DNA of 64,000 nt, taken from Candidatus Poribacteria bacterium. Its GTDB lineage: Bacteria; Poribacteria; WGA-4E; WGA-3G. Position numbers and translations under genes: made by a program. This document shows, in pieces, positions 2,140 through 46,766 of the stretch; within the stretch, counting starts at the first letter, position 1; every line of letters starts with the position of its first letter. The DNA lies in contig OZ244048.1 in NCBI GenBank assembly GCA_965215265.1, positions 4,549,989 through 4,613,988 on the forward strand, read 5' to 3'. The notes beneath the pieces are model-generated. The model was given only the letters and a program-made list of their open reading frames with translations. It did not search any database and was not told the DNA's origin.

Positions 2140-3360
2140 TTACGTATCGCTCTCGTTGTCCGCTTCCAACAACCGACGCATCAGTTCCGAACGCACCTCC
2201 GATGGCAACGCCCGAAGCTCCGACTGCGATAACTCTTGAAGCGCCTTGACACGCTCATCGGCGCTCAGCCTTTTCACCAGTTCATCGGCACTGAGTCCTT
2301 TCACACGCTCATCAACACTGAGTCTTTTCACTAACTCCGAAGGCGGAATTCTCTCCAAGATATCCGAACCAAATTTCTCTATTAGCTCCCTCAACTCCGC
2401 TTGCGACAAACTTTGAAGCACCTTGATATGCTCATCAGCACTGAGTCCTTTCACACGCTCATCAACACTGAGCCTTTTCACTAACTCCGAAGGCGGAATT
2501 CTCTCCAAGATATCCGAACCAAATTTCTCTATTAGCTCCCTCAACTCCGCTTGCGACAAACTTTGAAGCACCTTGATATGCTCATCAGCACTGAGTCCTT
2601 TCGCACGCTCATCAACACTGAGCCTTTTCACTAACTCCGAAGGCGGAATTCTCTCCAAGATATCCGAACCAAATTTCTCTATTAGCTCCCTCAACTCCGC
2701 ATCGTAAAATCCTTGATGCCCCATCATACGTAACACCTCCAGTGCACGCAGTGGACGAATCCACAACGCATAGTTAAAATACACACGCTGTTCTTCTGAA
2801 ACAACCTGCTCAACAAACGAATCAAAGCCTGAAAACGACACCGTAAAAGGCAGAAGTAAATAGTTCTCACGCGCAATCTCTAGCTCATTGCACACTAATA
2901 GATGCACAGCAAACCTCTCTGTCCACTGGTAGTGTCCAGGCTTCACCAACTCCCATTCCCCACTGGTACCCGAGAGAAACCCCCGAGGCGAACTCGCCGT
3001 CACTATCGTCAAAGTGAGCTCATCCTTTGGAACCCGCTTATCCGACAGATAAATACTGGCCCGCGCATGGATACGGGAATAGTCCCACTCATCTAACCGA
3101 TCCGCTTGACTCTTGAACTCAATCAGGTTATGCGAACGGAAATACTGGCATATCGGCTCTACCGCCAGCAAGTTCGCACGCTCTGCTGCATCTTTCAACA
3201 GCACGACCACGTCTATCGTGAGCGGCAGATGGCTGACTTCCACCTCTGATTGGACAGTCAGCCCGATTTTCTCGCCGAGATGCTCGTGCATTGTCTGTTT
3301 GAAGCGTGCGTCATAGGTAGCACGGGCATCGCGCTGTTTTTCCGCATCGGCTATCCGCAT
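2140..3360 (-). CDS. PD-(D/E)XK nuclease-fold protein (Rpn/YhgA-like putative transposase class) with a C-terminal tandem-repeat domain
   Basis: 406 aa ORF. A candidate catalytic motif is ...LTIDVVVLL... followed by NLIEFK (D ... E-x-K). It is a paralog of the 42387..43310 product, sharing EVEV, LP, ID, NLxEFK, VTLTIV, GHY and VHLLVCNE blocks and a C-terminal EADNxSDT tail. The C-terminus carries SADERVKGL-type repeats. GGAGG lies upstream of the ATG. Confidence 0.8.
   Translation of the reverse strand: MRIADAEKQRDARATYDARFKQTMHEHLGEKIGLTVQSEVEVSHLPLTIDVVVLLKDAAERANLLAVEPICQYFRSHNLIEFKSQADRLDEWDYSRIHARASIYLSDKRVPKDELTLTIVTASSPRGFLSGTSGEWELVKPGHYQWTERFAVHLLVCNELEIARENYLLLPFTVSFSGFDSFVEQVVSEEQRVYFNYALWIRPLRALEVLRMMGHQGFYDAELRELIEKFGSDILERIPPSELVKRLSVDERAKGLSADEHIKVLQSLSQAELRELIEKFGSDILERIPPSELVKRLSVDERVKGLSADEHIKVLQSLSQAELRELIEKFGSDILERIPPSELVKRLSVDERVKGLSADELVKRLSADERVKALQELSQSELRALPSEVRSELMRRLLEADNESDT
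2281..2700. repeat. 150 bp tandem repeat, about 2.8 copies, in frame inside the nuclease gene
   Basis: CTAACTCCGAAGGCGGAATT recurs at 2331, 2481 and 2631. The full copies 2331-2480 and 2481-2630 differ at a single base (TCACACGCTC versus TCGCACGCTC). The unit encodes the 50 aa block ELRELIEKFGSDILERIPPSELVKRLSVDER(A/V)KGLSADEHIKVLQSLSQA. Confidence 0.95.
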
Positions 3361-3377
3361 AAACCCTCCATATTCTT

Positions 3378-3407
3378 AGTATACCATTAACTGTGTAAAG
3401 TTGTCAA
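3378..3407 (-). promoter_or_regulatory. Sigma-70-type promoter of the PD-(D/E)XK gene (TTGACA-18 nt-TATACT)
   Basis: The minus strand reads gcTTGACAactttacacagttaatggTATACTaagaatatGGAGGgtttATG. The same hexamers and spacing occur upstream of the paralog at 43344-43373. Confidence 0.6.
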
Positions 3408-3483
3408 GCACAAATTCACGCGGCCCATCTCAGGCAACGTGTGTAACCGCCTATAACCGCGCGCTAGAGGCCCAACACCCATC

Positions 3484-3530
3484 AAAAAACCCAGGGGCAG
3501 CCGCTTGTGAGGTAGCTGCCCCTAGTTTTT
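3484..3530 (-). terminator. Rho-independent terminator hairpin downstream of the 3594..4346 gene; near-identical to the hairpin at 43426-43470
   Basis: A 9 bp GC-rich stem AGGGGCAGC / GCTGCCCCT has a 13 nt loop containing GTGAGG. It is flanked by A6 on the left and T5 on the right, which gives a T-tract on either strand. Confidence 0.7.
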
Positions 3531-3593
3531 GTGATGTGTGGGGTTGTTACTACGGGCTCATCAATTCCTATATGCTGAAAAAAAACGCCGCAT

Positions 3594-4346
3594 CTAACGA
3601 ATTGCGGTACCCAATATGAGATCGTAGCCAATGGCATCCATCAAGGAAATGAGCACATTCCCATCAATCCTATCGACGAGATGATCGAGTCTACCGCGAT
3701 CGAAAAGCGTGCCGGCAACTGGTTCTTTTTCCGTAATTAAGATGATAAGTTGCATCGCTGCACCTGAAATCAAGGGAACTGTGAGATTATCATCAACGCG
3801 AAGCGGAAGAAGTTCAACGATAGTTGCAACGGATGCTCCAACCAGTGCAACAACGAGACTTGAGAATTCAGGCTGCAACTGCACACCGCTGTCGAAAAGG
3901 AACGAGAAAAAAAAGATCGCCGTCGCAGTGCAAACGATAAAACAGGCAGCACTCCCTTCTAAACTCTTCTGACCGGTGAGTTTCATCCTGCCCCACATTT
4001 TACCTACCAACGCCGCCGAAGTATCCCCCAAAACCATGAAGAAAATGCAGACAATTGCAGGCTGCTTATAAAAAAAGAAAATGCACAACAGCGTGCTGAT
4101 GAGATAGTAAGTTGCACCGGTAATAGCACCTTGGCGTTCATGTGTCCGAAGGAGCGGCATCAGTGCAGTAAAAAAAAACGCCCTGAAATGCGGCGATAGC
4201 CATTTCGCGAGTTCAACGGCTATCGCCACACCTGTCAAAATACACACAAAAAACAGTATCGTCGGTTTATCCATAAAGAGATAAACAACCGGGACGATTA
4301 AACCTGCCAGATGAATGCTTTTCCGACGTAACTCTTCCTTCATCAA
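3594..4346 (-). CDS. Polytopic membrane protein, CTP-transferase-1 / polyprenol (dolichol or phytol) kinase-like family
   Basis: 250 aa, with multiple hydrophobic segments. The N-terminus EELRRKSIHLAGLIVPVVYLF and the GDTSAALVGKMWGR block resemble the dolichol/phytol kinase and CdsA-like family. Confidence 0.6.
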   Translation of the reverse strand: MMKEELRRKSIHLAGLIVPVVYLFMDKPTILFFVCILTGVAIAVELAKWLSPHFRAFFFTALMPLLRTHERQGAITGATYYLISTLLCIFFFYKQPAIVCIFFMVLGDTSAALVGKMWGRMKLTGQKSLEGSAACFIVCTATAIFFFSFLFDSGVQLQPEFSSLVVALVGASVATIVELLPLRVDDNLTVPLISGAAMQLIILITEKEPVAGTLFDRGRLDHLVDRIDGNVLISLMDAIGYDLILGTAIR

Positions 4347-4764: not shown

Positions 4765-7611
4765 ATGGAACGGTTTTGCATCATGCTGTTGCTGCTCATA
4801 CTTGGTACAGGGCCTGCTTTCGGCGAAAATGAAGCACAACAGCGAGTAAAAATTACCGGCGTGGTTATAGATAGCAACACCGAGGTACCCCTATCTAATG
4901 CCACTATCCGGGTAGTGGACACGTCTTCGCGTGATAGACAATCCCAAGTCAGTAGTGATGACACAGGGAATTTTTCTCTGGAACTACCGAGCGGTACCTA
5001 TACAATCCAAGTCACTGCTTCGTTTTACAATGCCTATGTCATTTCAGATTTTCAGGTTGATGTAGAGAAAGCGGTTGAACCCATTCGTGTCTTGATGACT
5101 GCTCAGGTTGTAAAACTCGACGCGATTAAACTCCCAGTGCGGTTGAGCCAATCCAGCGAACGTGGGCTCCTTGAAAAACGGATGCGCAGCTCCCGAATTG
5201 AAGATAGCATCAGCACCGAAGAGATTAGCCGCCTCCCAGCCTCTTCTGCAGGGGATGCTATTAAGAGGGTGACAGGCGTTAGCATCGTTGGCGGACGGTA
5301 CGTGTTTGTCCGAGGGCTCGGTGAACGTTACAGTAATACTCTCCTCAATAATGTTGAGATTCCGAGTCCGGAGCCCAATCGACGGGTTGTCCCGATGGAT
5401 ATATTTCCGGCGAGTCTCCTGGCGAGTTTGCAAACAGTCAAAACGTTTTCACCGGATCAACCGGGGGGGTTCGCTGGCGGCTCTGTACAGGTGTTTACGA
5501 AAGACTTTCCTGAAGAATTAACAATGTCACTTTCCATATCGAGCGGTTTCAACACACAGACAACCGGTGAAGAAGGGCTCACCTATGAAGGCGGTACGCT
5601 GGATTTCTTAGGTTTTGATGATACATCGCGTGAACTTCCAACGATTGTGAGAGAACAGGCGGCGGAACTGCCTATCCGCGAACGGGGACGTTTTACACCG
5701 GCCGGTTTCACACCGGAAGAGATCCAAAAATTCGGGCAAGCTTTCTCCAACGTCTGGTCACCAAGACGGCAGGAGATTCCTATCAATCAAAGCTATAAAT
5801 TCAACCTCGGCAACAGTCACCCACTTTTCGGAAAAGACTTCGGCTACCTTGCCGTGCTCTCTTATGGCAACAGCCATAGTTCCAGTACCCAAGTGCGCAA
5901 TGCCTTCCGCATCGGATTAAACGAAATCCTTTCGCCGGTAACCTCCTACGACGTTGAACGCAACGCAAATGAAGTAGACTGGGGGAGTGTTCTAAACGCA
6001 AGCCTCCGGTTCTCACCACAGCATCAACTGAGTCTACGTTCTCTCTTCACGCATACGGCTGAAGATGAGACCCGGATATGGGAAGGCTTTAATGCCGATA
6101 GAAACACAGATATGCGGAGCTCTCGACTCCGATATGTTGAACGCCAGCTCTTCTCTGGACAATTAGCCGGCATGCACGACTTTAATTTCGGTGCCCCAGA
6201 ACTGGAACGTTCCAGCGCGGATAGTGGGACAGAAGCGATAACAACCCAGCCCGAGCTCGCAATGGAATGGCGACTCACTTATTCACGTGCATCACGGGAC
6301 GAACCAGATACACGCGAGACTATCTATGAAGATAGGGCTGGCACTTTCACTTTTCGAGATGTTACACACAGTGGCAGCCGCTTCTTTTTTGACCTGGAAG
6401 ATAATGAGTATAACGTGCGCGTGGATTGGAGGATTCCGGTTCGCAAGGCCGGATTCTTCAAATTCGGCGGACTCTTGCGAGATCGAGCGCGCACCTTTGA
6501 TGCCCGCAGATTTAGATTTTTGCCTGCAGACAAAGTGGATGCCACCGTTAATTTATCAGACCCGCCCGAAACACTTTTCAAACAGGAACATATTGCACCA
6601 CGCGTATTTGAACTACGCGAATCCACTCGGGCAACCGATAACTACCTAGCAGACCACAATATCTACTCCGGCTACCTTATGCTGGATATCCCTGTCACGC
6701 AAAAATGGCAATTCATGTCGGGGGTCCGGCTTGAATCTTCAACGCAAAAGGTAACTACCTATGATCCGTTTTCAGCATCCGTGCGGCCAATTGTGGCAGA
6801 TTTAGAAACCGTAGATTTGCTGCCCGGTGCTAACTTGACGTACCGGCTAGCGGAACGGATGAACCTACGAGTCGCTGCATCACGAACGATTACACGCCCA
6901 GATTTTAGAGAACTTGCTCCATTTGAGTTCACAGATTTCGTTGGCGGACGAACCATCCTTGGAAACCCGGAACTTGAGCGGACACAGATTGACAATTATG
7001 ACTTCCGCTGGGAAGTGTTTCCACAAATTGGTGGGGTCGTCGCCGCCAGTCTCTTTTATAAACGATTTCAGAAACCGATTGAGCAAATCGTTCAGCCGCA
7101 AGCAGAAGTCCGCATTACCTATGAAAACGCCGACGCTGCGAATAACTACGGCCTTGAACTAGAAGCACGCCAGAACCTCGGAATACTCACAGATAAACTC
7201 AACGAATTCTCGATTAACACCAATGTGGCGCTAATCTCTTCGCGGGTGGTACTACCTGATGTTGGGATCCAGACATCGTCTGAACGGCCCCTACAAGGGC
7301 AGTGCCCGTATATAGTCAATCTCTCTATCGGTTACGAAAACCCCAACTGGGGCATCTCGAGCGCAGTCGCTTATAACATTTTTGGCAAAAGGCTCTCTGA
7401 AGTTGGAAACCATGGTGTACCTGATGTTTATGAACAGCCCCGCGGCCAGTTGGATGCCAATTTTAGCCGCACCGTTGCAAATTACTTCCGAATCAATTTT
7501 TCGGCGAAAAATTTACTCGACCCTTATGTGCATTTCAAACAAGGCGAAGAGGTATACGTTCAGTACAAACTCGGACGTGCCTTTTCATGCGGACTCAGCT
7601 ATAACCTCTAA
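4765..7611 (+). CDS. TonB-dependent receptor with an N-terminal carboxypeptidase-regulatory-like domain
   Basis: 948 aa with a signal peptide. The CarbopepD_reg-like block is ITGVVIDSNTEVPLSNATIRVVDT. The plug region is RLPASSAGDAIKRVTGVSIVGGRYVFVRGLGERYSNTLLNNVEIPSPEP. A long beta-barrel-like C-terminal part follows. Confidence 0.88.
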   Translation: MERFCIMLLLLILGTGPAFGENEAQQRVKITGVVIDSNTEVPLSNATIRVVDTSSRDRQSQVSSDDTGNFSLELPSGTYTIQVTASFYNAYVISDFQVDVEKAVEPIRVLMTAQVVKLDAIKLPVRLSQSSERGLLEKRMRSSRIEDSISTEEISRLPASSAGDAIKRVTGVSIVGGRYVFVRGLGERYSNTLLNNVEIPSPEPNRRVVPMDIFPASLLASLQTVKTFSPDQPGGFAGGSVQVFTKDFPEELTMSLSISSGFNTQTTGEEGLTYEGGTLDFLGFDDTSRELPTIVREQAAELPIRERGRFTPAGFTPEEIQKFGQAFSNVWSPRRQEIPINQSYKFNLGNSHPLFGKDFGYLAVLSYGNSHSSSTQVRNAFRIGLNEILSPVTSYDVERNANEVDWGSVLNASLRFSPQHQLSLRSLFTHTAEDETRIWEGFNADRNTDMRSSRLRYVERQLFSGQLAGMHDFNFGAPELERSSADSGTEAITTQPELAMEWRLTYSRASRDEPDTRETIYEDRAGTFTFRDVTHSGSRFFFDLEDNEYNVRVDWRIPVRKAGFFKFGGLLRDRARTFDARRFRFLPADKVDATVNLSDPPETLFKQEHIAPRVFELRESTRATDNYLADHNIYSGYLMLDIPVTQKWQFMSGVRLESSTQKVTTYDPFSASVRPIVADLETVDLLPGANLTYRLAERMNLRVAASRTITRPDFRELAPFEFTDFVGGRTILGNPELERTQIDNYDFRWEVFPQIGGVVAASLFYKRFQKPIEQIVQPQAEVRITYENADAANNYGLELEARQNLGILTDKLNEFSINTNVALISSRVVLPDVGIQTSSERPLQGQCPYIVNLSIGYENPNWGISSAVAYNIFGKRLSEVGNHGVPDVYEQPRGQLDANFSRTVANYFRINFSAKNLLDPYVHFKQGEEVYVQYKLGRAFSCGLSYNL

Positions 7612-7689
7612 ATGAGAGGCATCAGCATCGCGGAACGTCAAAAAGAATTAATAGTATTGCAACTATTCTGTAACAATTTAAGGCTATCA

Positions 7690-7852
7690 TTTTTCGTATA
7701 TTTCAGCCCCATCAAGGGTTATGTATTGTTAAATCCGATGTACATCTCGTCAGAGCCTTTCGATGTTATGAATCTAAACATAAACGGCTCTAGTGAGATT
7801 TGTGCTAAGGTGTTCATTATATCAATCATTGTTGTGCTCTTGTAGACAAAAA
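7690..7852. mobile_element. Solo copy of the palindromic MITE-like element
   Basis: TTTTTCGTATATTTCAGCCCC ... ACATCTCGTCAGAGCC-TTTCGATGTTATGAATCTAAACATAAAC-GGCTCTAGTGAGATTTGTGCTAAGG ... GTGCTCTTGTAGACAAAAAA. It lies in the 355 bp gap between the TBDR gene and the downstream lipoprotein gene. Confidence 0.65.
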
Positions 7853-11035: not shown

Positions 11036-12361
11036 CTACTGATTTTCCCACTCAAACCGCTGTTTATCTATCTTCGCTTTCTCTTCATCTACAAAACGCA
11101 ACAACACCAACCCGACAATAAAGAAAACGATAAGCGAGATGATAGCTTGGCGTGCGTCGCCTGTGATGTGACGAATAAAGCCAAACACAAACGGTCCCCA
11201 AATCGCCGAGAACTTATTAAAAACTGAATAGAAACCATAAAACTCAGCACTCGCCTGTTCTGGAACTATTCGCCCGTAGAAGGAACGGCTCAGCGCTTGT
11301 GTTCCGCCAAGCACAATGCCAACAACCACGCCTAACAAAAAGTATTGCATTGCACCATCAATGAAATACCCGTAGGTGACAACAGCACTCCAGAGAAGCA
11401 AGGCAAAGATAATAGCACGTTTTGTGCCGATGCGTTCCGCTAACCGACTGAATAGCAGCGCACCGCCTATTGCAATGATTTGGATAACGAGCAACGTCAC
11501 TAGGAGTACCGTTGTTGAAAGCTCTAACGTTTCCTTACCGTAAATTGTCGCCATGCTGGTAACCGTATGGATACCGTCATTATAAATCATATAGGCGATC
11601 AGAAAGAGCGTGAGATGTTTAAAGCGGCCTACCTTTTTCGCAGTCGCCAGGGTGCGGCGAATGCCGAGCGCCAGATAACCTTTTACTTTTAAGGAATCAG
11701 GCCCATTTTCAGGTAACGCGTGAGGTGTTTTCTCTTCCTTAAGGTACTTAGCCGTCAAAAGTGTCCAGCCTGCCCACCAGAGTCCCGCCATTGCCATCCC
11801 GATACGTGCTGCCATGGCTTGACTCATTCCCAACGTTTCATGCATCGCAACGAGTGCCAGAGAAATAGCAAACTGAGTCCCACCGCCGATGTACCCAAAT
11901 GCATAACCGTTAGCGGAGACAGCATCCAGTTTATCTTCAGAGGCAATGTGTGGTAAAAAAGCGTCATAGAAGACATTCGCCCCCACAAAACAGACCTGGG
12001 AGCCGATAAAGAGGCACACCGTCAACACGACATCTCCTGTCTTACAAAAATAGAGCAAGGTTGCGAAAAAGCTGCCCATGTAAGCGAAACCGAGCAGAAA
12101 CCGCTTTTTCGCCGAAGAGAAATCGGCGATAGCCCCCAGGACAGGCGCGAAGAGGAAGACTAAAAATGCGGACGCTGCCAACATCCATGCCCATAACGTC
12201 TCACTACTTACGTTATGCCCGGCAATGTTAACACCATCTTCGCCTACGATCGCTCCTGCAAAATAGACAGGCAACAAGGCAACCACCGTCGTCGTAATAT
12301 AGGCCGAATTCGCCCAATCATATAGACACCAGCCCAAAATTGTTTTCTTATCGTTTTTCAT
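11036..12361 (-). CDS. MFS transporter, UMF1/Atg22-like family
   Basis: 441 aa, roughly 12 TM segments. The N-terminus ILGWCLYDWANSAYITTTVVALLPVYF is characteristic of the UMF1 (Atg22-like) MFS family. Confidence 0.8.
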   Translation of the reverse strand: MKNDKKTILGWCLYDWANSAYITTTVVALLPVYFAGAIVGEDGVNIAGHNVSSETLWAWMLAASAFLVFLFAPVLGAIADFSSAKKRFLLGFAYMGSFFATLLYFCKTGDVVLTVCLFIGSQVCFVGANVFYDAFLPHIASEDKLDAVSANGYAFGYIGGGTQFAISLALVAMHETLGMSQAMAARIGMAMAGLWWAGWTLLTAKYLKEEKTPHALPENGPDSLKVKGYLALGIRRTLATAKKVGRFKHLTLFLIAYMIYNDGIHTVTSMATIYGKETLELSTTVLLVTLLVIQIIAIGGALLFSRLAERIGTKRAIIFALLLWSAVVTYGYFIDGAMQYFLLGVVVGIVLGGTQALSRSFYGRIVPEQASAEFYGFYSVFNKFSAIWGPFVFGFIRHITGDARQAIISLIVFFIVGLVLLRFVDEEKAKIDKQRFEWENQ

Positions 12362-37441: not shown

Positions 37442-38614
37442 ATGATTCGAGCCGGTGTAGGGCATTCCCAAAGCCTTTCTACCACGGAAGCAGCCGAACG
37501 CGCAACTCTCATGGCGATGGGGAATGCAGGTATTGCAAAGGCAGACCTGGCAATTGTGTTTGCAACCATCAATTACCAGACAGAATATCAAGAGTTGTTC
37601 AGCTCGGTTCAGGCGTGCTCTGGTTGTGAACGGCTGGTTGGGGGCAGTGGAATGAGTGTCCTGACTTCAGCCGGGGAATTTGAAGGACAACCGGCACTGG
37701 CTGTGATGGTTATTCGCAGTGAACAAATGTCGGCCATTTCGTTTAGCATGCAAGGTACTGAATCCGAAATCGCTACCCAAATACGGCGTCGCGTTCACCC
37801 TGAGATGCAGGAGAATTCGCTGTTGATAGTTTTGCCGGATATCCGTTCTATGAATCCTACGGAATTAGTCAAACAGGTCGGGACGGATGGCGAGAAACTT
37901 CCTATCGTTGGTGCGGCGATATCCGGGGATGCGACCGGTGCTCAGATGTACCATTGGGCGGGTCATGAAGCAAGAGAAGGGGGTGTGGCAGGGGTTATGC
38001 TGACCGGAGAGTTTCATACTGAGGTAGGGGTTGCACAAGGCTGTCAACCTGTTGGCAAACCTTATGAAATTACGAAATCCCAAGGGCGCATTATCTTTGA
38101 ATTAGACGGCAGTCCTGCTCTGGAACGTTTCAAACAGACATTGCAACTGCTTACGCGCGAGGATATTCGCCAATCGGGGGGCATGGTTTTTGCTGGCATT
38201 GCGATGGATGCCGCGAATCGTGAACCTGCACGCGGAGACTTCCTGATTCGCAATCTGGTTGGAGTGAATGAAGAACATGCTGCTATTGCACTATCAGAGA
38301 AAGTTGAGGATGGGCAATTAGTTCAATTTCATCTGCGTAACGCGCCGGCGGCAAAAGCTGAAATCCGCTCGATTATAGAGCAATTATCAGAAAAAACGTG
38401 GGAACACCCCCCTGCTTTTGGGCTCTATTTTAACTGCTTAGGCCGTGGCAAAGGGCTCTATGGCGAATTAAATCACGACATTACAGTTATCGAAGAGAAG
38501 TTTCCTGGGGTGCCGGTTATCGGATTTTTCGGGAATTCAGAGTTCGCACCGATTGGTAACGAGAACTTCGTGCATACGTATACCGGCGTGCTTGTCCTGT
38601 GTTCAGCTGCCTAA
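37442..38614 (+). CDS. FIST domain (FIST_N/FIST_C) sensory protein
   Basis: A GAGGAG RBS lies before the ATG at 37442; the ORF track begins at a GTG at 37388. Overall layout: MIRAGVGHSQS...TEAAERA, DLAIVFAT..., and a C-terminal GFFGNSEFAP. This is typical of FIST proteins as I recall them. Confidence 0.65.
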   Translation: MIRAGVGHSQSLSTTEAAERATLMAMGNAGIAKADLAIVFATINYQTEYQELFSSVQACSGCERLVGGSGMSVLTSAGEFEGQPALAVMVIRSEQMSAISFSMQGTESEIATQIRRRVHPEMQENSLLIVLPDIRSMNPTELVKQVGTDGEKLPIVGAAISGDATGAQMYHWAGHEAREGGVAGVMLTGEFHTEVGVAQGCQPVGKPYEITKSQGRIIFELDGSPALERFKQTLQLLTREDIRQSGGMVFAGIAMDAANREPARGDFLIRNLVGVNEEHAAIALSEKVEDGQLVQFHLRNAPAAKAEIRSIIEQLSEKTWEHPPAFGLYFNCLGRGKGLYGELNHDITVIEEKFPGVPVIGFFGNSEFAPIGNENFVHTYTGVLVLCSAA

Positions 38615-40719
38615 TTTCCTGAGGAGGTCAGACGTTTCTGCTGTTGTTGTAGATAGTGTTTGACTGCATTTGCATCAGTTGCTTGGATGCCTAGAGTCCC
38701 GGCTTCGTCAATCAGGATTTCAATTTGCACTACCCGTTTCTCATCATCTGCCAAAAGCAGCTTTTCTGCGTTTTTATACGCCTCTGCGGCGCGGGCAGTT
38801 TCACCCAATTCTTGGTGTATCACTGCGATGTACACGTAGGCAGCAGCGAGCCTTGGGGAGTTTGGACGGAGCTGGATAAACTCCTCAAACGCAAATCGGG
38901 CTTCTGTGTAACGCCTATCCTTGTAATGGACGCGCCCGATGCGAAATTGTGCCCTATCCGCAAAACTATCCTTATACCCGACGGCGAGGTACCGGTCGCG
39001 TTCCGGATAGCCAATCGTCGTCTGGTACGCTTCCAGTGCATCGTTGTAGCGGTTCAGTTTGCTGTAGAGCTCGCCCAGCTGGAAGTTTGCCATCATCGCC
39101 TGCAAAGCATCTGGGTGCTGTTCAATCACATTTTGGTATACACTGAGCGCCTTATGCAGATTAGAGAACTGTTCAGCGTAAATAATCCCTGTGCGATAGA
39201 GTGCCTCGGCAGCATAAACGGATTGTGATTTTCCTGCGAGGGTTTCAACAAATTCCACCACTTCTTGGTACGCTTGGATGGCTTGGGAATAGTCAGTTAA
39301 TTGCCGTTCATAGATGGTGCCTATTTGCAACAGGGCTCTCGTCTTTTCAGTATCGTTTAACGTTTCCAACTGAATATGAGTGCGCAGGTTTTGTATGGTG
39401 GCATGGTGTGCCATTGAAGGGAGCTGTGCCGCTGTCTGCTTCGCATAGACTGTGCCAGGTGCGGTCGAGATGAGGGCTTGGGCGATAATTAATGCCTCTG
39501 CAAAGTTGTTATTTCCTATTGCTTCTTGCAGTCTCTCATATTCTACCTTCGACATCTCCTTCTGCAATTTTACAATCTTTGCCTGAATCAGCGACTTCAC
39601 CTCGGAAACATCCTTGTCATACATTGAAATCTGCCCTAAGTAACCCGGTTGAAGATGAGGTAGGTAAACGTAAAGGAACGTTTCAAACGCCTCTACAGCC
39701 TTAGGATAGTTTCGGTTCTGTTCATGACAGATGCCTATCCAATAGTGAACTGCGTGCATATTCCAGAAGTTCGGATATTTCTGTTTGAGTTCTTCAAAAA
39801 CGAGAAGCGCCTTTTGGATGCTTTGATTAGGAGGTGTCGTGTGAGTTTGCCCTGGCAATGCAGCTGCTGTTCGATAGAGATTTGCCAATTGGAAGAGCGC
39901 CTCTGCAGCGAAATTGCTAGTCGGGTACGTATCGACGACCGTCTGGTATGCGTCAATTGCGTCAGACAATTGGTTGAGTACGGTATGCCTGAGATGTGCA
40001 ATTCGCCATTGTGCCTCTGGTGCAACGGGTGCCTCCGGGTAGGCTTTCAGCAAGAGCTTGTAAGCTGCAATTGCCTCTTCTGGCCGATTGAGCTGGGCAT
40101 GGTTACGGTAGAGCTCAGCTATCTGAAATTGGGCGATGGCCCCAAGTGGGGTACCTTGATATTGGCGAACATGTGCTTGCTGGACTTGTAGTGCCGCGAG
40201 CGCAGTCCGAATATCGCGAATTTTCTGTAAACCGGTCTTATGCACAAAGTGCGTGGCGGGTGCCAATTCAACGAGGAGATGGTAGGTTTGCATCGCCTCT
40301 TCGTATTTCCCCATTCGGCAGTAGACATCGCCTTTCTTAATAGAGGCAAGGAAGAGCTCCTCACTCGGCAGTCCTTTTTTCTCTAGCTGCAGGATTTTGT
40401 CGTAAACCTGCACCGCCTCTGCATACTGCTGTGTATAGTTAGAATGGATTTCTCCAATCTGGTAGTAGCACCAACTTTGCACTTCAACGTCTTTGGCAGA
40501 TCCGGCAAGAACCGCAAGTTTATCTACTGCTTCTGAGTAGCGGCCGCCTCGAATTAAGACGTTCACTTCCTCAAATTGTGCATGAGCGACAGAGAGTATC
40601 GTCATACTGAGGAGAAATATCAGCCCTGCCTGTATCAAACGTCTAATTGTCTGCTGCATTCCGACTCCTATACGGTTTGTACTCTTCTGGATGGTTAGAT
40701 TTTGATAGTATTGTGCCAT
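38611..40719 (-). CDS. Tetratricopeptide (TPR) repeat protein, exported or anchored
   Basis: 702 aa. An N-terminal hydrophobic segment is followed by many YxxAxxxYxxxxxxxP-type TPR units. It is the last gene of the sigma/anti-sigma operon. Confidence 0.8.
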   Translation of the reverse strand: MAQYYQNLTIQKSTNRIGVGMQQTIRRLIQAGLIFLLSMTILSVAHAQFEEVNVLIRGGRYSEAVDKLAVLAGSAKDVEVQSWCYYQIGEIHSNYTQQYAEAVQVYDKILQLEKKGLPSEELFLASIKKGDVYCRMGKYEEAMQTYHLLVELAPATHFVHKTGLQKIRDIRTALAALQVQQAHVRQYQGTPLGAIAQFQIAELYRNHAQLNRPEEAIAAYKLLLKAYPEAPVAPEAQWRIAHLRHTVLNQLSDAIDAYQTVVDTYPTSNFAAEALFQLANLYRTAAALPGQTHTTPPNQSIQKALLVFEELKQKYPNFWNMHAVHYWIGICHEQNRNYPKAVEAFETFLYVYLPHLQPGYLGQISMYDKDVSEVKSLIQAKIVKLQKEMSKVEYERLQEAIGNNNFAEALIIAQALISTAPGTVYAKQTAAQLPSMAHHATIQNLRTHIQLETLNDTEKTRALLQIGTIYERQLTDYSQAIQAYQEVVEFVETLAGKSQSVYAAEALYRTGIIYAEQFSNLHKALSVYQNVIEQHPDALQAMMANFQLGELYSKLNRYNDALEAYQTTIGYPERDRYLAVGYKDSFADRAQFRIGRVHYKDRRYTEARFAFEEFIQLRPNSPRLAAAYVYIAVIHQELGETARAAEAYKNAEKLLLADDEKRVVQIEILIDEAGTLGIQATDANAVKHYLQQQQKRLTSSGN

Positions 40720-41368: not shown

Positions 41369-41950
41369 TCAAATTTCATGATTTTCCCAGAGCGGCCGCA
41401 GGAGAGTTTGTAAGCGTTTGACGGCCCGGTGCAGATGAATCTTTACCGTGCCCTCTGCCATACCGAGGGTTTCCGCTGCCTCTTTAATGGAAAACCCTTC
41501 GTAGCGGCATAGCATGAAAACGGATTTCTGCTTAGCGGACAGTTGCGCGACAGCTTCGCGGATAATCCGGCCCCGTTCTTTCTCCTCTAGCAGTTTAACG
41601 GGATCGCTCGCAAGATCGGTGGCTATCAGCCTGGATTCCGGGATTTCTTCATCCTCTAATAAATAGACAGGGTTACGTGCTTTCGCACGATGATGATCGA
41701 CAGCAAGGTTAGAGGCAATTTTATAAAGCCATGTCGAAAATTTGGCCTTGGGCTGCCAATTATCGAGGGCACGATATACCTTGACAAACACTTCAATAGT
41801 GATATCCTCCGCATCCTCATAATTCTTGACAGAACGGAACAGATAGGAGAAAATTCTGGATTTGTAGCGTTTCATCAATTCGTCAAAGGCACTCTGATGA
41901 CCGGCTTGAAACTGAGCAACTAACTTCTCATCGTCAATCCAATTATCCAT
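41369..41950 (-). CDS. ECF-type RNA polymerase sigma factor
   Basis: Region 2 is DAEDITIEVFVKVYRALDNWQPKAKFSTWLYKIASN. Region 4 is QKSVFMLCRYEGFSIKEAAETLGMAEGTVKIHLHRA. I prefer the MDNWIDDEK start (ATG at 41950, AGGA upstream). The maximal ORF runs to 42058. Confidence 0.9.
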   Translation of the reverse strand: MDNWIDDEKLVAQFQAGHQSAFDELMKRYKSRIFSYLFRSVKNYEDAEDITIEVFVKVYRALDNWQPKAKFSTWLYKIASNLAVDHHRAKARNPVYLLEDEEIPESRLIATDLASDPVKLLEEKERGRIIREAVAQLSAKQKSVFMLCRYEGFSIKEAAETLGMAEGTVKIHLHRAVKRLQTLLRPLWENHEI

Positions 41951-42076
41951 AATTCCTGCTACATAAAACGAAGCGAACAGAGAACACACTAGTGGGCGAT
42001 GCGAGGGCTCGCTTGTTGCGGGATTTGCATAAACTCTTATTATTTCAAACGATGGCACTCAAAAAAAGTTTACACG

Positions 42077-42251
42077 TTTTTTGTATATTTCAGCACATCA
42101 ACGCCTGATGTTTTTCTAAAATCTTTACAAATCTCGTATGAGCCTTTCGAGGTTATGAATTCTAAACATAAAATATCTCTGGCGAGATTTGTGCGAGGTT
42201 GTTCATTAAATCCATCGGTGACGGGCTGAAAGATTGGAATCAATGAAAAAA
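42077..42251. mobile_element. Copy of the palindromic MITE-like element, 3' of the second PD-(D/E)XK gene
   Basis: TTTTTTGTATATTTCAGCACATCAACGCCTGAT ... TACAAATCTCGTATGAGCC-TTTCGAGGTTATGAATTCTAAACA-...GGCGAGATTTGTGCGAGG ... GGGCTGAAAGATTGGAATCAATGAAAAAA. Confidence 0.6.
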
Positions 42252-42386
42252 GGCGGCATGCCGGAGCCACGTGCCCTAGTTAGGTGAATTTACATCTCAC
42301 TGAGTTTACTCTTGTGCCTTAAGCGTCGCCCAGCATTCTGTGAGTTTACCGTCCGCACTCAGATGCCCTTTCAAGCGGGTTGTCTG

Positions 42387-43310
42387 CTACGTGTCGGTGT
42401 GGTTGTCAGCTGCCTCCAGCTGCCGCACGAGTTCTGCACGCAGCGCCGGAGATAAATGAAGTCCGGCTAACCGCTCATCGGGAGTGAGTCCTTTGACGCG
42501 CTCATCGGCACTTAGGCGTGCTAACATATCGGTGCGTTCTTGAGGGCTCAAGCGGGACAGCATGTCCGCACGCTCCTCCGATGTCAGTGCAGACAGCAGC
42601 TTCGGACCTAAAGTCGTCGCAACTTCGCGAAGACGACTCTGAAAGAAATCTTGACGGCCTTCCATTTCACAAACCTCCTCCGTGACTTCCGGCTGCAAAT
42701 ACAACGCGGAGTCAAAATATAACGTATTCTCTTCCGTTATCACCCGCCGCAGGAACGCACGAAACTGTTTCTGCGACGACGCAAACAGCAGCAACCAATA
42801 ATTCGGCTCAACCACCTCCACTTCATTGCAAACCAACAGATGCACCGGCACGCCATCCATCAACCGATAATGCCCTGCCGCCAATGGCTCCCACGGCTCC
42901 CCAAAAGGCGGACGGGAGAGCAGTGCCCGCGGCTTCCGAGACGACACTATCGTCAAGGTAACCTCCGTGTCTGGCACCTTATGCGCTGCGAGATAACCAC
43001 GCGCACGCATACAAATCCGGTGATACGCCGAGGCATTCAACGGATCGTTCTGCCCTTTGAATTCGAACAGATTATACGTCCGTAAGTAAGAGAGCAGCGG
43101 GTGCGCACGCACTCTCGTGCGTGCCGCCGCGCTTTCGAGGAGAGCGAGTGCATCTATACGCTGCGGCAACCGGTTGACTTCTATCTCTGTCTGGATAGAG
43201 GCACCCAGCCCAGAGAACAGCAGGGCGAGGAACTCTTTGAAGAAAGGGTCCCAAAACTGCCGTTTGCTTTGTGTTTGTTTGGATGTCTCTGGTGCCGTAG
43301 TTTGCCTCAT
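42387..43310 (-). CDS. PD-(D/E)XK nuclease-fold protein, paralog of the 2140..3360 product
   Basis: 307 aa. The catalytic-type motif is RIDALALL followed by NLFEFK. It shares VTLTIVSS, GHY, VHLLVCNEVEV, NYWLLLF and LYFDSAL blocks with the paralog. The C-terminus has SxEER/SADERVKGL repeats and an EAADNHTDT tail. Confidence 0.8.
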   Translation of the reverse strand: MRQTTAPETSKQTQSKRQFWDPFFKEFLALLFSGLGASIQTEIEVNRLPQRIDALALLESAAARTRVRAHPLLSYLRTYNLFEFKGQNDPLNASAYHRICMRARGYLAAHKVPDTEVTLTIVSSRKPRALLSRPPFGEPWEPLAAGHYRLMDGVPVHLLVCNEVEVVEPNYWLLLFASSQKQFRAFLRRVITEENTLYFDSALYLQPEVTEEVCEMEGRQDFFQSRLREVATTLGPKLLSALTSEERADMLSRLSPQERTDMLARLSADERVKGLTPDERLAGLHLSPALRAELVRQLEAADNHTDT

Positions 43311-43343
43311 CTATCTGCTTAGGTGCTCCACTTCTCATAATAA

Positions 43344-43373
43344 AGTATAGCAGCTTCTCTGTTATTTTGTCAA
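43344..43373 (-). promoter_or_regulatory. Sigma-70-type promoter of the second PD-(D/E)XK gene (TTGACA-18 nt-TATACT)
   Basis: The minus strand reads ctgccTTGACAaaataacagagaagctgcTATACTttatt. The hexamers and 18 nt spacing are identical to those at 3378-3407. Confidence 0.6.
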
Positions 43374-43425
43374 GGCAGTCTCCAGATTTCGCTTCTCAAG
43401 GCGGCCTCGGTGCTTCTCTGAAAAC

Positions 43426-43470
43426 AAAAAAAACCAGGGGCAGCCATGTGAGGGTGGCTGCCCCTGGTTT
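43426..43470 (-). terminator. Rho-independent terminator of the LRR protein gene; same hairpin family as 3484-3530
   Basis: Perfect 12 bp stem CCAGGGGCAGCC / GGCTGCCCCTGG with a 10 nt loop containing GTGAGG. On the minus strand it is followed by T8. Confidence 0.8.
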
Positions 43471-43520
43471 AGGTTAGGTTAACTTAGATTTCACTGAGTT
43501 TATTCTTCCGAGTTAAGTTG

Positions 43521-45113
43521 TTAATTTGCCAGAGGCGAGATATCCGACACTTGCGTATCACTGAGATCCAGCACTCTCAAGTTCGTGAGGTTTGCCAGCG
43601 GCGTGACATCCGACACTGGCGTACCCCCAAGATCCAACTCTTCCAAGTTGGTGGCGTATTCAAGTCCAGTCAGATTTCTAACGTCTGAGCCACTTAAATC
43701 TAGGCTTGTCAAGCCGAGCATATGTACCGAGGTCACAGCCGTCCCCGCGGAGATGTCGAGTGTCTCCTTGATTGCCGCAAGGAGCGTCTCATCCGGAATA
43801 TTCACCTCGACGCTTGTATTTACAGGCACCGTCAGCGTATTCGAGGCACGGCTCAGGTTGCCCACTATGTCCATTGTGGCATCCGCTGGCACCGTTATTT
43901 CCACATCTCCGTCAAAAGCAGACGGCGGCGTGATAGTCGCTCTGTAGACTTTGAAGGCGGAACTATGTTTCACCAACCCCAGATCATCATTCGCCGGCGC
44001 AGAACCGGGATCCCGATGGTCTAAGCCGATTAACATCGGGGCTGAAACCTGCCAATCAGCCGTGGTGGTGCCTAGTGTCACCGCGGTGTCATCTACCTTG
44101 AGCGTGATGTCCGTCGCCTCGAAGCCTCGCGTGGTATCTGCAATCACACCATCAGCGTCATTTCCAATCCCATAATTGTAGAATAGGAATTCCACATCAA
44201 AGGACTCTGTCTGAGTGTCAGGTTCGGTAACAGGCGGATTGGGCTCTGCCGCTTCAAACGGTGCAAAATTCACATAGGCGGTGCGGTAACCCGTCTCAAC
44301 ATCATGAGTATCATCCTTGATCAGGCCGTGGATCCTCACGCTCGCCCGGATAGTATCTATGAGATAGTTAAGACCGTCATGATCAGAAGGGGTCGGCAGC
44401 GGATGACTCCGGTCGTAAAAAATCTGCATCTTGTCATAGTAGATCCTCACATTACTCTGGTCAGTTTTCCACTTATCAGTATTGCCGGTGTTCTCGACGG
44501 GGTTCTCGACGGTAGCAGCTTTATCTATGATGAAATTATTTGCATCGTCAGAATAGGGATCCGGAGTGCGATCTATAACAACGCCATCGCCGAAAACGTC
44601 ATCACCGTCTTGCACCTCGTATCTGAAATATACGACTTTATTATCGGTTCGCGCACCGGTCCTTACTGAATCATAGACGGCAGCTAGCTCAGTAGTGCCA
44701 TCGGGGCGGGTGGTCTCACCGTCCATATCTAGCGCCAGGGCCGGCAGAGCGGACGTTCCATCGTGCTGGACTTTGACATCTATATCAAATGTCAACTTAA
44801 AAACGATTTCATCTGTACTACCGAAAAATTTAACCGCTAGGCCCGTGGTGGGGTTGGAGTACCCCGGAGCAGTAAGAATGCCCGATGTATGGTTTGCTAG
44901 TAGATTCTTCCTAAAATTTCCACCCCGCTCCCAATCTGCAATTAACCGTGACCTGCTGTCCGCATAGAGCGAATCGCCTGTATGTGGACCTTCACTCTCT
45001 ATCTCAACCGACTCTAACATCGGTTTATCTGCCTGCACGGTAGCCATCGGTGCGGCTAACATCGCAATCCCGGCTATCGAAATTACAGATGAGATAAATC
45101 CGCCACTCAACAC
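43521..45113 (-). CDS. Secreted protein with C-terminal leucine-rich repeats (internalin-like LRR)
   Basis: 530 aa, GTG start. The signal-like N-terminus is GGFISSVISIAGIAMLAAPMATVQA. The C-terminal 22-residue LRR units are LTSLDLSGSDVRNLTGLEYATNLEELDLGGTPVSDVTPLANLTNLRVLDLSDTQVSDISPLAN. Confidence 0.75.
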   Translation of the reverse strand: MLSGGFISSVISIAGIAMLAAPMATVQADKPMLESVEIESEGPHTGDSLYADSRSRLIADWERGGNFRKNLLANHTSGILTAPGYSNPTTGLAVKFFGSTDEIVFKLTFDIDVKVQHDGTSALPALALDMDGETTRPDGTTELAAVYDSVRTGARTDNKVVYFRYEVQDGDDVFGDGVVIDRTPDPYSDDANNFIIDKAATVENPVENTGNTDKWKTDQSNVRIYYDKMQIFYDRSHPLPTPSDHDGLNYLIDTIRASVRIHGLIKDDTHDVETGYRTAYVNFAPFEAAEPNPPVTEPDTQTESFDVEFLFYNYGIGNDADGVIADTTRGFEATDITLKVDDTAVTLGTTTADWQVSAPMLIGLDHRDPGSAPANDDLGLVKHSSAFKVYRATITPPSAFDGDVEITVPADATMDIVGNLSRASNTLTVPVNTSVEVNIPDETLLAAIKETLDISAGTAVTSVHMLGLTSLDLSGSDVRNLTGLEYATNLEELDLGGTPVSDVTPLANLTNLRVLDLSDTQVSDISPLAN

Positions 45114-45138
45114 GCAAATAAAACACTTAACATATAGA

Positions 45139-45147
45139 AGGGGGGGG
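45139..45147. repeat. G9/C9 homopolymer tract just upstream of the LRR gene
   Basis: Nine consecutive G on the plus strand (C9 on the coding strand). The tract lies inside a 12-codon upstream ORF. Confidence 0.95.
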
Positions 45148-45656
45148 GTGCATTCTTCTCTTCATCTTATCTAACTCCTTGTTATTCTTTATCCCGTGAT
45201 GGAATAAACTTTATAGTCTTCTGACTAAGTTATAGAACCCAAAAAAAAACACTTTAGCTATATTATACCATAAAACAAAACGCGAAAAAAAAGCCGACTT
45301 TTTTCTCTTATATCTATCATGATACCCGCAATCTGAGAAAATTCAATTCTTTTTTTTCGAATTCCTGAAATTGAGCCTTGTATCTATTTGCAGACGAATT
45401 TAGACACAGGGCTCCAAACGACTTCGTCACACTTATAGAAACGTTATGGGTTGTAAAAGGGTTACAATACAAAAAATGTCAATCCATTTTACGGATGTTG
45501 CCTCAAACGGTTTCGGCAACTCACTTTGTAAAGTTAATTATACCTGCAATCTAAAAGAAATGTCCACTCTTTTGCTCTTATATACTTAAGTATACCACTA
45601 CCTACACTTGTTGGGGGATGGAAATATCAACCCGCTTTCCGATCTTTGTTGTGCAC

Positions 45657-46766
45657 TCAGTATGCCGCTTCGTAAAGGCTTACAAAGTCTTGCGTCTCTA
45701 GCGGATGTGGGTTAAATTGTGCGGTCCACTGCGCCGCGGCTTCTGCCGCCAATGGCGGTATTTGGCACGCTGGGATGTTAAAATCTCGCAGTCTCGACGG
45801 CAATTCGGCACGCTGTTTGAATTTGACAATGCACGCTGCTAAATCTCCGTCTGGATATAATTGGCTATACAATTCTCCTACACTCTTGCTATTGTATAGA
45901 ATAACATGTGGTAACATCAATCCGACAGCGAGTCCGTGTGTGATACCGTAGTTTGCTGTCAATGGGTTTGCGCAGGCGTGTGCGGCCCCCAGCATCGAAT
46001 GTTCAATGGCAGCCCCTGCGAGATAGGCACCGAATAACATGTTGCCGCGTGCCAGGTGCGGTGTTGCTCTAAGGCTCTGCTCAAAATTTGCTGCTAATAC
46101 CTGCCATGCACGTTCGCCGAACATCTGTGACATCGGATTGCGTTTTGTAGAAACGAAGCTTTCTATCGCATGCGCAATTGCATCAATCCCGGTAGCAGCT
46201 GCAACTGATTTTGGTAAACTTGCAGTGAGAGTCGGATCGAGAATTACGACGTTGAATATCGCCTTTTTGTCACCACACGCCATCTTGATGTGCGTTTCTG
46301 CTTGGGCTATCAGTGCGAAGGATTGCGCCTCGCTTCCTGTACCCGTCGTCGTCGGAATCCCAATAGACGGGAGCATCGGCTGAGTTGCTCTGTTTACACC
46401 CCAGTAGTCCTCCATCTTTCCCCCATTTGTGAGCAAAAAGTTGACTCCTTTCGCGCAATCCATCGCGCTGCCACCGCCGAGCCCAATAATGAGCTCTATC
46501 GGTGCGTTCGTTCTCGCAAATGCTACTGCAGCTTCAACATGCTGCGTTGTCGGATTCGGTGCAACCTGAGAAAAAACGGAGACACGAACGCTCGCTGTCT
46601 CCAACACATCTATTGCCCGTGCCGCGATGCCTGCCTGAACGATGCCAGCGTCCGTTACGAGCAGCACCCGCTTGATCCCGAAGTCCTCTGTCAATTCTGG
46701 GAGTTTCTCTAACGTATTTTCGCCAAAAATCACGCGCTGTGTGAACTCAGAATCAAACGCTTCCAT
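45657..46766 (-). CDS. Iron-containing (group III) alcohol dehydrogenase
   Basis: 369 aa. GLGGGSAMDCAKG, the GTGSE block and metal-binding histidine blocks DAIAHAIES and HACANPL. Confidence 0.9.
   Translation of the reverse strand: MEAFDSEFTQRVIFGENTLEKLPELTEDFGIKRVLLVTDAGIVQAGIAARAIDVLETASVRVSVFSQVAPNPTTQHVEAAVAFARTNAPIELIIGLGGGSAMDCAKGVNFLLTNGGKMEDYWGVNRATQPMLPSIGIPTTTGTGSEAQSFALIAQAETHIKMACGDKKAIFNVVILDPTLTASLPKSVAAATGIDAIAHAIESFVSTKRNPMSQMFGERAWQVLAANFEQSLRATPHLARGNMLFGAYLAGAAIEHSMLGAAHACANPLTANYGITHGLAVGLMLPHVILYNSKSVGELYSQLYPDGDLAACIVKFKQRAELPSRLRDFNIPACQIPPLAAEAAAQWTAQFNPHPLETQDFVSLYEAAY

Follow-up and report, generated by a model that had tools for sequence, protein, structure and literature searches.

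A 64,000-nt stretch of the genome of the sponge symbiont Candidatus Poribacteria bacterium (assembly GCA_965215265.1, contig OZ244048.1, positions 4,549,989-4,613,988; hereafter the window) contains a gene for a 307-amino-acid (aa) putative PD-(D/E)XK-type nuclease that is bracketed, together with its promoter, by an imperfect direct repeat. Such an arrangement has the appearance of an insertion footprint. Comparison with related loci points to a different reading: the two repeat copies are probably the 3′ ends of two paralogous genes for secreted leucine-rich-repeat (LRR) and lamin-tail-domain (LTD) proteins, here termed X genes, which belong to a multicopy, recombining module of LRR1, LRR-LTD and nuclease genes, and are not the product of an insertion that duplicated its target. 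The apparent footprint would then be two decayed gene ends, which is a caution for the interpretation of direct repeats in genomes rich in paralogues.

The genes of the locus all lie on the minus strand, in the order iron-dependent alcohol dehydrogenase (Fe-ADH), LRR1, the nuclease-like open reading frame (ORF), ECF sigma factor, anti-sigma factor and TPR protein. The closest assemblies, L001 (GCA_964347105.1) and L002, share ~98% DNA identity with the window and both carry the nuclease gene. Further nuclease paralogues were compared at four loci from related assemblies (L083, L084, L085 and L093), and the comparison of flanks covers the seven nuclease genes for which both sides were visible.

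The repeat copies and the 3′ ends of X genes

The repeat is genuine and exceeds chance expectation. Window positions 42279-42323 and 43473-43517 are identical at 36 of 45 positions (30 of 35 in the core), and their local alignment score of 45 compares with a mean of 16.1 (s.d. 2.2) and a maximum of 28 in 2000 dinucleotide shuffles; the pairwise alignment therefore bears out the direct repeat described in a first-pass annotation of this DNA. When the left intergenic segment (42240-42386) is compared with the rest of the window beyond its own locus, the runner-up reaches a score of 30, while the 35-nt and 17-nt repeat motifs are confined to these two sites in the 64 kb. Between the copies lie a sigma-70-type promoter on the minus strand (43344-43373; TTGACA-18-TATACT with a TG extension, 11 of 12 consensus matches) and the 307-aa ORF (42387-43310, minus strand), and the bracketing of promoter and gene by two homologous segments is thus as first described. 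The same annotation had carried the repeat through the adjoining hairpin to a length of 60-80 bp, with the hairpin intact in one copy and decayed in the other. This extension fails, as the hairpin parts of the two copies align with a score of 13 against 11.0 +/- 2.1 for shuffles, a value reached by 361 of the 2000. After the right copy, on the transcribed strand, stands a strong intrinsic terminator (43423-43470, minus strand) comprising a 16-bp stem (43431-43470; core CCAGGGGCAGCC...GGCTGCCCCTGG) and a T run, with a fold energy of -35.8 kcal/mol (z = -6.65). A terminator scan placed a weak terminator after the left copy (42246-42270, minus strand; a 5-bp stem at 42253-42270, an 8-nt loop and then T6), which resembles the strong hairpin only at chance level, and the left segment folds no better than its shuffles (z = +1.2).

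The left copy extends a further 63 nt (42324-42386), up to the nuclease stop codon, and this additional sequence is homologous to coding sequence elsewhere. Over its full ~108 nt (42279-42386, minus strand) the left copy is 83-85% identical to L083 18-125 and L084 5710-5818. Its counterpart in L084 encodes the C-terminus of a secreted LRR + LTD protein of 900 aa, which terminates in ..YYYRIEDVSNAGVQQTLQTTRLKGHLSADGKLTERWATLKSEE (also given as ..TTRLKGHLSADGKLTERWATLKSEE); the tail, the hairpin, the promoter and a nuclease paralogue come next. The left copy comprises, by this homology, 26 fossil codons (42309-42386, QTTRLKGHLSADGKLTECWATLKAQE), a stop codon (42306-42308), a tail derived from the 3′ untranslated region (3′UTR; 42279-42305) and the weak terminator; indeed a tblastn search with the C-terminal domain of the L084 protein matches window 42392-42309. 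The fossil begins directly after the nuclease TAG and is in frame with the nuclease. Read-through of this TAG into the 26 codons was considered and set aside, as an open frame is expected from the fossil origin; the other nuclease paralogues all end in ..ADN(H/G/D)(T/N/S)(D/N)T, and L001 ends in M. X-gene 3′ ends also follow the nuclease stop codon at other loci, twice in L093 and, as a remnant with internal deletions, in L083. In both L093 genes the stop codon is succeeded by CGGAGAGCCACCG.CCCTTGATAC.., the X 3′ end and a terminator, the tail being kept only in the first. A synonymous variant, GCGGACGG, is common to the downstream X copies and the left copy of the window, and intact or upstream X copies have GCAGATGG. 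Just before the nuclease/X junction of the window, GACAC is found on both parental sequences.

The right copy (43473-43517, minus strand), which aligns with L084 5774-5818, consists of the last three codons, TCG GAA GAA (43503-43511), the stop codon (43500-43502) and the 3′UTR tail of a deleted LRR-LTD gene; the same ..TCG GAA GAA TAA closes the 900-aa LRR + LTD ORF in L084. As the first ~15 nt of the repeated tail are last codons and stop codon, the remaining ~30 nt are 3′UTR, and the whole is homologous to X-gene ends, both copies are identified as X-gene 3′ ends.

The sequence on the LRR1 side of the right copy preserves the deletion junction. A remnant of the spacer between LRR1 and LRR-LTD, AACAACTTAAC (43512-43520, minus strand), overlaps the LRR1 stop codon and ends at the junction, such that the window reads ..AAATTAACAACTTAAC|TCGGAAGAATAA, that is, LRR1 stop-AACAACTTAAC|TCGGAAGAATAA-tail, where TCGGAAGAATAA represents the last three codons and the stop codon of the LRR-LTD gene. 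The corresponding sequences are ..AAAATAACAACTTAAC|ATGGAGGTAAAGTCATG in L085 and ..AAATTAACTAAACTTGGAGGTAAAGTAATG, the ribosome-binding site (RBS) and start of LRR-LTD, in L084. Because the spacer runs on into the LRR-LTD RBS and start codon (ATGGAGGTAAAGTCATG) in L084 and L085 but into the last codons of the gene in the window, it appears that the window, L001 and L002 lost the whole LRR-LTD gene in one deletion. The pentanucleotide CTTAA is present on both sides of this junction as microhomology. L085 displays an intermediate state, in which LRR1 is truncated at its 5′ end and LRR-LTD is internally deleted. LRR1 of the window (43521-45113, minus strand), which encodes a secreted protein matching Pfam LRR_4 and LRR_EndoS and whose ORF ends inside an LRR repeat, is 76-81% identical at the DNA level to LRR1 of L084 (1140-3068) and to the LRR remnant of L085.

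The right copy is, in addition, continuous with conserved sequence on its other side. Ahead of the L083, L084 and L085 paralogues, the block formed by tail, hairpin and promoter (window 43517-43311) recurs with 86-92% identity; it is complete in L083 and L084, while L085 keeps the hairpin, the promoter and only the 3′ half of the tail. Such conservation argues for membership of a multicopy module and against a local target.

A search with the C-terminal domain encoded by the X-gene 3′ ends gave 73 hits at 44-69% identity, which make up a Poribacteria family without a Pfam model. The domain pattern, ..LS.F....ESELNNAGFNILRS...YYYQIEDVSLDG...RLKG...GKLTT.WG.LK..*, terminates many secreted LRR/LTD proteins, and the domain was located at L084 5399-5791, L086 6001-6396, L088 6307-6678, L006 8829-9221 and L061 7234-7605. 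Most of the database matches are short ORFs of 91-225 aa, which suggests that many X-gene ends are truncated. From genome to genome, the X 3′UTR beyond the stop codon and the coding sequence are conserved to a similar degree. L086 and L088 hold X genes without a nuclease. Behind the one in L086, which is from another genome and has no nuclease in its vicinity, come a tail of recognisable homology (TAACTCAGGGATATTCTAACTAACCTAC..) and a terminator of its own. Six further loci carry the repeat sequence at the homologous position. The view that the repeat is a duplicated terminator region, made on site, is difficult to sustain when the same sequence stands behind X genes elsewhere, including one with no nuclease beside it. 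In L005, L006 and L022, and not in L003, an LTD gene with the same C-terminal domain lies directly upstream of the orthologous sigma gene. The left copy could thus be the remnant of a resident X gene.

Probable recombination among module copies and the origin of the bracket

The flanks of the seven nuclease genes vary considerably. X ends are present on both sides in three of the seven, namely copy 2 of the window (the gene considered here), L083 (partly) and the second of the tandem units of L093 (L093b); two-sided flanking, which the first-pass annotation proposed to look for at other nuclease paralogues, thus recurs at two further genes. The first L093 gene (L093a) has an X end downstream only, the L084 gene L084c and L085 have one upstream only (intact and partial, respectively), and copy 1 of the window has the hairpin alone. 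The boundaries of homology likewise differ among the window, L083, L084, L085 and L093, and no terminal inverted repeats bracket 42240-43530. The module itself is disposed differently from locus to locus: L084 contains, in a row, a nuclease, a nuclease fragment, LRR1, LRR-LTD and a nuclease; L085 has a 5′ fragment of a nuclease gene downstream; and L093 comprises two tandem units with a palindromic element between them.

If one copy of the repeat had given rise to the other at this locus, the two might be expected to resemble each other particularly closely. Across the 45-nt tail the left and right copies of the window are identical at 36 positions, and the non-local pairings are equivalent: 36 for the right copy and L084, 35 for the right copy and L083, and 35 for the left copy and L084. 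Even the left copy and its own orthologue in the 98%-identical strain L001 agree at only 37 of 45. The local pair is no more alike than non-local pairs, and thus nothing points to a local duplication or indicates that one copy arose from the other here.

The differences between the window and L001 are concentrated in 42300-45500 (L001 6700-9700), where LRR1 and the nuclease are 87% and 92% identical at the amino acid level, respectively, compared with 99-100% for the ADH and sigma genes; in these flanking genes the two strains otherwise share more than 99.9% identity. Variant patches within this interval match other paralogues, and the paralogues that the nuclease C-terminus resembles are not the same in the two strains. 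The left tail differs between the window and L001 at 8 of 45 positions, and the right 45-nt tail only by a 5-nt insertion in L001. Gene conversion among paralogues is probably the simplest reading of this divergence, and 42300-45500 is a strain-level hot spot, probably of such conversion. On this reading the module evolves by deletion and probable gene conversion even between strains that share 98% of their DNA sequence.

The history that these comparisons suggest is as follows. An LRR-LTD gene, whose counterpart in L084 is still in place, would once have separated LRR1 from the nuclease and would have been removed by a deletion that extended from its RBS to 9 nt before its stop codon, through the CTTAA microhomology. 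The left fossil X 3′ end would now serve as the 3′ region and terminator of the nuclease gene. The bracket itself was probably assembled by duplication, by ectopic homologous recombination or gene conversion, and by microhomology deletions among dispersed copies of the module. Although the homology and identity of both copies, the multicopy nature of the module, both junction sequences and the lack of excess local similarity are direct observations, the order of events is a reconstruction. The left copy may have come in as part of the nuclease unit, or it may be what is left of an X gene that already stood upstream of the sigma operon.

It should be emphasized, however, that several observations sit less comfortably with this history. 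The nuclease/X junction reads TAG|CAGACAACC in the window, as opposed to the usual TAA|CGGAGAGCC, and so at least this junction is specific to the locus. The left copy is a mosaic, its 5′ part being like intact X genes and its middle like the downstream fossils. The string ACTCAGTGA is exact in both window copies and in the right copy of L001, and has one mismatch in the left copy of L001. The one near-match elsewhere follows the X gene of L086, and the other paralogue loci inspected lack the string. The mosaic and the sharing of ACTCAGTGA could together signify some local exchange or a local origin. Furthermore, only seven nuclease genes were inspected on both flanks, and the history is rebuilt from paralogous loci only, as no empty orthologous site or nuclease-less allele was found. 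A search with the sigma factor retrieved 80 genome loci; ~73 of them are orthologous loci in Poribacteria, with no LRR1, nuclease, tail or palindromic element upstream of sigma. They provide no unoccupied orthologous site, because gene order upstream of sigma is not conserved in these ~73 other species.

It could be argued that an excised or circular nuclease unit, made up of hairpin, promoter, nuclease, X 3′ fossil and tail, entered by a single homologous crossover between its X 3′ end and that of a resident X gene and so came to lie behind that gene, a Campbell-type and reversible event. The proposal of a circular intermediate was part of the first-pass annotation, and it stands as far as the layout is concerned: homologous segments in direct orientation on both sides of promoter and gene are what one crossover would give, as in Campbell-type integration or unequal crossing-over generally, and diverged paralogues would make such repeats imperfect. 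The option also has a rationale in the homology between the nuclease unit and X-gene 3′ ends. The X 3′ fossils of nuclease units at other loci are potential portable homology arms, X genes free of a nuclease exist in L086 and L088, and two-sided flanking recurs in L083, in part, and in L093b. Against the proposal, neither a circular junction nor an empty orthologous site nor an excision allele came to light, no site-specific recombinase or att site is evident, and the homology is that of an ordinary gene-family 3′ end. Moreover, the window, L083, L084 and L085 share LRR1 and LRR-LTD sequences as well, and look like copies of one larger module and not like separate integrations; the nuclease/X junction of the window is unlike that of other units; and tandem units such as those of L093, followed by deletions, give the same layout. 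We therefore regard a Campbell-type origin as unlikely, if reasoned.

A local duplication, either a tandem duplication that included the tail or repair synthesis at the arrival of the nuclease, with subsequent divergence to 80% identity, would account for the sharing of ACTCAGTGA and for the direct orientation of two copies 1.2 kb apart. Such an origin is nonetheless very unlikely in view of the tail identities given above, which are no higher within the locus than to copies at other loci. In addition, nothing on the right matches the 63 nt of X coding sequence in the left copy, the right copy belongs to an unbroken tail-hairpin-promoter block that is shared across the module, and the hairpin parts cannot be aligned above chance.

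There is little to recommend transposition, in which the nuclease-like protein would be a transposase and the cassette would have entered the terminator with a long target-site duplication, and we consider it barely credible. Rpn/YhgA-type PD-(D/E)XK proteins have historically been annotated 'putative transposase', the present family is multicopy, and direct repeats flank the gene on both sides as they do transposons and insertion sequences. The window repeats, however, are far too long (45-108 nt) and imperfect for a target-site duplication, and they pre-exist at other loci, where they match copies behind genes without a nuclease. The cassette lacks inverted-repeat ends, and flank structure is inconsistent among paralogues (X ends on both sides in three of seven, on one side or neither in the rest, with variable copy boundaries). 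These points, together with the absence of excess local similarity, also leave unsupported the earlier suggestion that an insertion duplicated a long target. Rpn genes, for their part, are reported not to be autonomously mobile and are said to move by recombination or hitch-hiking (PMC10400941). Finally, a chance resemblance of two AT-rich intergenic stretches, for which the shortness of the repeat is the sole argument, is of negligible probability given that no shuffle scored above 28 and that the same sequence recurs at homologous positions in six further loci.

The bracket is, on the preferred reading of paralogous X-gene ends, of less interest than its by-products, an uncharacterised nuclease family and its linkage to eukaryote-like genes. 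Eukaryote-like protein families (LRR, TPR and ankyrin) are reported to be expanded in sponge symbionts, including Poribacteria (PMC4850255, PMC5845141). The flanks of the window gene likewise consist of secreted LRR and LRR + LTD genes that are multicopy and strain-variable, and the module thus links these proteins, which are candidate host-interaction factors, to a PD-(D/E)XK-type family. None of the titles and abstracts returned by a literature search describes a nuclease linkage, a shared C-terminal domain with a conserved 3′UTR, or decay by microhomology deletions, and none deals with this module.

The nuclease-like family and its comparison with Rpn proteins

In the 307-aa protein, a PD-(D/E)XK-type domain at the N-terminus (residues ~20-215) precedes a helical C-terminal domain (C-domain) with variable repeats. 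A full-length structural model built from 22 sequences was poor (pLDDT 67) and the fold search with it was uninformative; it was replaced by an AlphaFold2 model of residues 1-215, derived from a 76-sequence alignment, with a pLDDT of 93.3 and a pTM of 0.88. The predicted element order is H20-34, E38-44, E51-57, H61-68, E79-85, H93-110 and E117-123, which gives an alpha-beta-beta-beta-alpha-beta core. Every one of the 76 diverse relatives (18-45% identity) has D53 and K85, and at least 90% have E83; D53 maps to strand 2 (E51-57) and E83-x-K85 to strand 3 (E79-85) of the model. Foldseek against the PDB returned nothing with E <0.03, and the top 16 matches, with E values of 0.2-1, were enriched in restriction-endonuclease-like domains (R2 RLE, MspJI, BspD6I, EcoO109I and Bse634I). 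A PDB profile search gave nothing relevant, and the protein has no Pfam, NCBIfam or PADLOC match. The model thus predicts with confidence a PD-(D/E)XK-type fold and motif, and the nuclease activity is putative. The family is a large one, with 1536 representative clusters at E <= 1e-3 and no curated model, and at least nine distinct nuclease paralogues reside on the source chromosome.

A second start codon may be embedded in the gene. At the domain boundary (42663-42681, minus strand), a Shine-Dalgarno sequence, GGAGGAGG, precedes by 8 nt the ATG of Met216, which from the sequence is a possible internal translation start. Of 42 aligned family members, 35 have a residue in this column, which is methionine in 23, and at the equivalent site of copy 1 (~2733-2752) GGAGGTG is followed after 7 nt by ATGATG. 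A stand-alone C-domain ORF is present at L084 176-616. The number of C-domain repeats is clearly unstable, as close paralogues of copy 2 vary from 0 to ~8 in their 12-aa ADMLASLPAAER units. In copy 1, the C-domain contains three tandem 150-nt (50-aa) repeats (window 2282-2731), the second and third being 99% and 89% identical to the first.

These features recall the Rpn (YhgA-like) recombination-promoting nucleases of E. coli, in which the toxin RpnL is paired with an intragenic antitoxin, RpnS (PMC5350276, PMC10400941). The likeness extends to the N-terminal PD-(D/E)XK-type domain followed by a helical C-domain whose repeat number varies among paralogues; to the internal methionine and strong Shine-Dalgarno sequence at the domain boundary of the window genes; to the stand-alone C-domain ORF beside full-length genes in L084, which is comparable to RpnS; and to the multicopy state without transposon ends. 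Of the distant family members, 3 out of 42 have DUF4351, the domain name of separate RpnS genes, which went undetected in the window proteins. In contrast, the catalytic motif is E-F-K in the window family and E-x-Q in Rpn, the repeats are 12 or 50 aa instead of 4 aa, and neither the window proteins nor 42 relatives match PF04754 (Transposase_31) or an Rpn NCBIfam model. An hhalign comparison with E. coli RpnA gave a probability of 0.45%, with no N-domain similarity to RpnA, RpnB, RpnC or RpnE, and a comparison with a four-sequence Rpn profile yielded only a 21-column C-terminal match at a probability of 9%. Membership of the Rpn family at the sequence level is thus unsupported by Pfam, by NCBIfam and by the two hhalign comparisons.

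By analogy, the nuclease genes might nevertheless be Rpn-like toxin/intragenic-antitoxin units, defensive or selfish, which have multiplied in the genomes of sponge symbionts, in which the X fossil acts as a portable homology arm and which integrate behind, excise from and recombine with LRR/LTD genes. We view this composite proposal as distinctly doubtful. If the portable-arm reading were true, the LRR/LTD host-interaction genes would be hot spots of deletion, gene conversion and strain-level diversification. Were the nuclease Rpn-like, the 'gene-within-a-gene' concept of toxin and antitoxin would extend to a family that sequence searches do not link to Rpn, and would also suggest a route by which symbionts reshuffle their repertoires of surface proteins.

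Hairpins, palindromic elements and neighbouring genes

The second nuclease gene of the window, copy 1 (2140-3360, minus strand; unit 2140-3524), encodes 406 aa and is 39% identical to copy 2 at the protein level. It possesses its own promoter and, upstream, a hairpin of the same type (3492-3524), and there is no X tail on either side. The hairpin motif GGGGCAGC-N-GCTGCCCC occurs only beside nuclease paralogues (twice in the window, L001, L002, L083, L084 and L085) and is absent from 83 other loci examined. The hairpins are positioned at 3492-3524 and 43431-43470 in the window, L083 134-161, L084 5827-5856, L085 5840-5869 and L093 5041-5072, and the sequence CCAGGGGC(A/G)GC...GCTGCCCCTGG keeps ~85% conservation even across the two nuclease subfamilies, at a protein identity of only 39%. 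The nuclease promoter is ~90% conserved in L083, L084, L085 and L093. The conserved hairpin may be the terminator of the preceding unit; the gene upstream of copy 1 appears to have a separate terminator at ~3575-3600. Rfam returned no matches at gathering thresholds over the whole window, with two chance-level matches on the hairpin.

A dispersed palindromic element of ~165 nt (repeat families D5-D7) occupies 42076-42239, just outside the left repeat copy, as the first reading of the locus had it. Other copies are located at 1762-2131 and 7689-7850 in the window, at L093 ~5070-5235, directly after the terminator of a nuclease unit, and at L084 ~11078-11226. The element contains an internal inverted repeat, ACAAATCTCG...CGAGATTTGT, and has the look of a miniature inverted-repeat transposable element or a repetitive extragenic palindrome. 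In the window and in L093 it abuts, in either orientation, the T run of the terminator behind a nuclease unit. The element was considered as an end of the nuclease cassette and rejected, since one copy (7689-7850) stands apart from any nuclease, both orientations occur, and the L083-L085 units have no such element. At 42076 it adjoins the conserved -10 sequence of the sigma promoter (TGTAAACTT), and other species have TTGACA-17-TAAACT.

Upstream of the module, Fe-ADH spans 45657-46766 (minus strand). Downstream, the ECF sigma factor gene (41369-41950, minus strand; Pfam and NCBIfam matches) is the first of the sigma, anti-sigma and TPR operon and is the edge of the variable region; its orthologues share 73-85% amino acid identity, and the gene order downstream of them is conserved in ~73 Poribacteria species. 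Genes for eukaryote-like proteins have repeatedly been acquired at the site upstream of this operon, as a comparison of L003 with L006 illustrates: in L003 (7721-9646) genes for CBM9 and DUF3500 proteins lie directly upstream of sigma, and in L006 (2269-9221) a gene for a 1281-aa LTD protein is inserted between DUF3500 and sigma. On the far side of the operon, ~37 kb separate an FG-GAP/VCBS gene (342-1769) from the TPR gene (38611-40719). In most other Poribacteria (L004, L007, L008 and many others) the FG-GAP/VCBS gene is 1.5-5 kb beyond the TPR gene, and the separation in the window is a large lineage-specific insertion or rearrangement. The FG-GAP end of this 37-kb interval holds nuclease copy 1 and palindromic elements.

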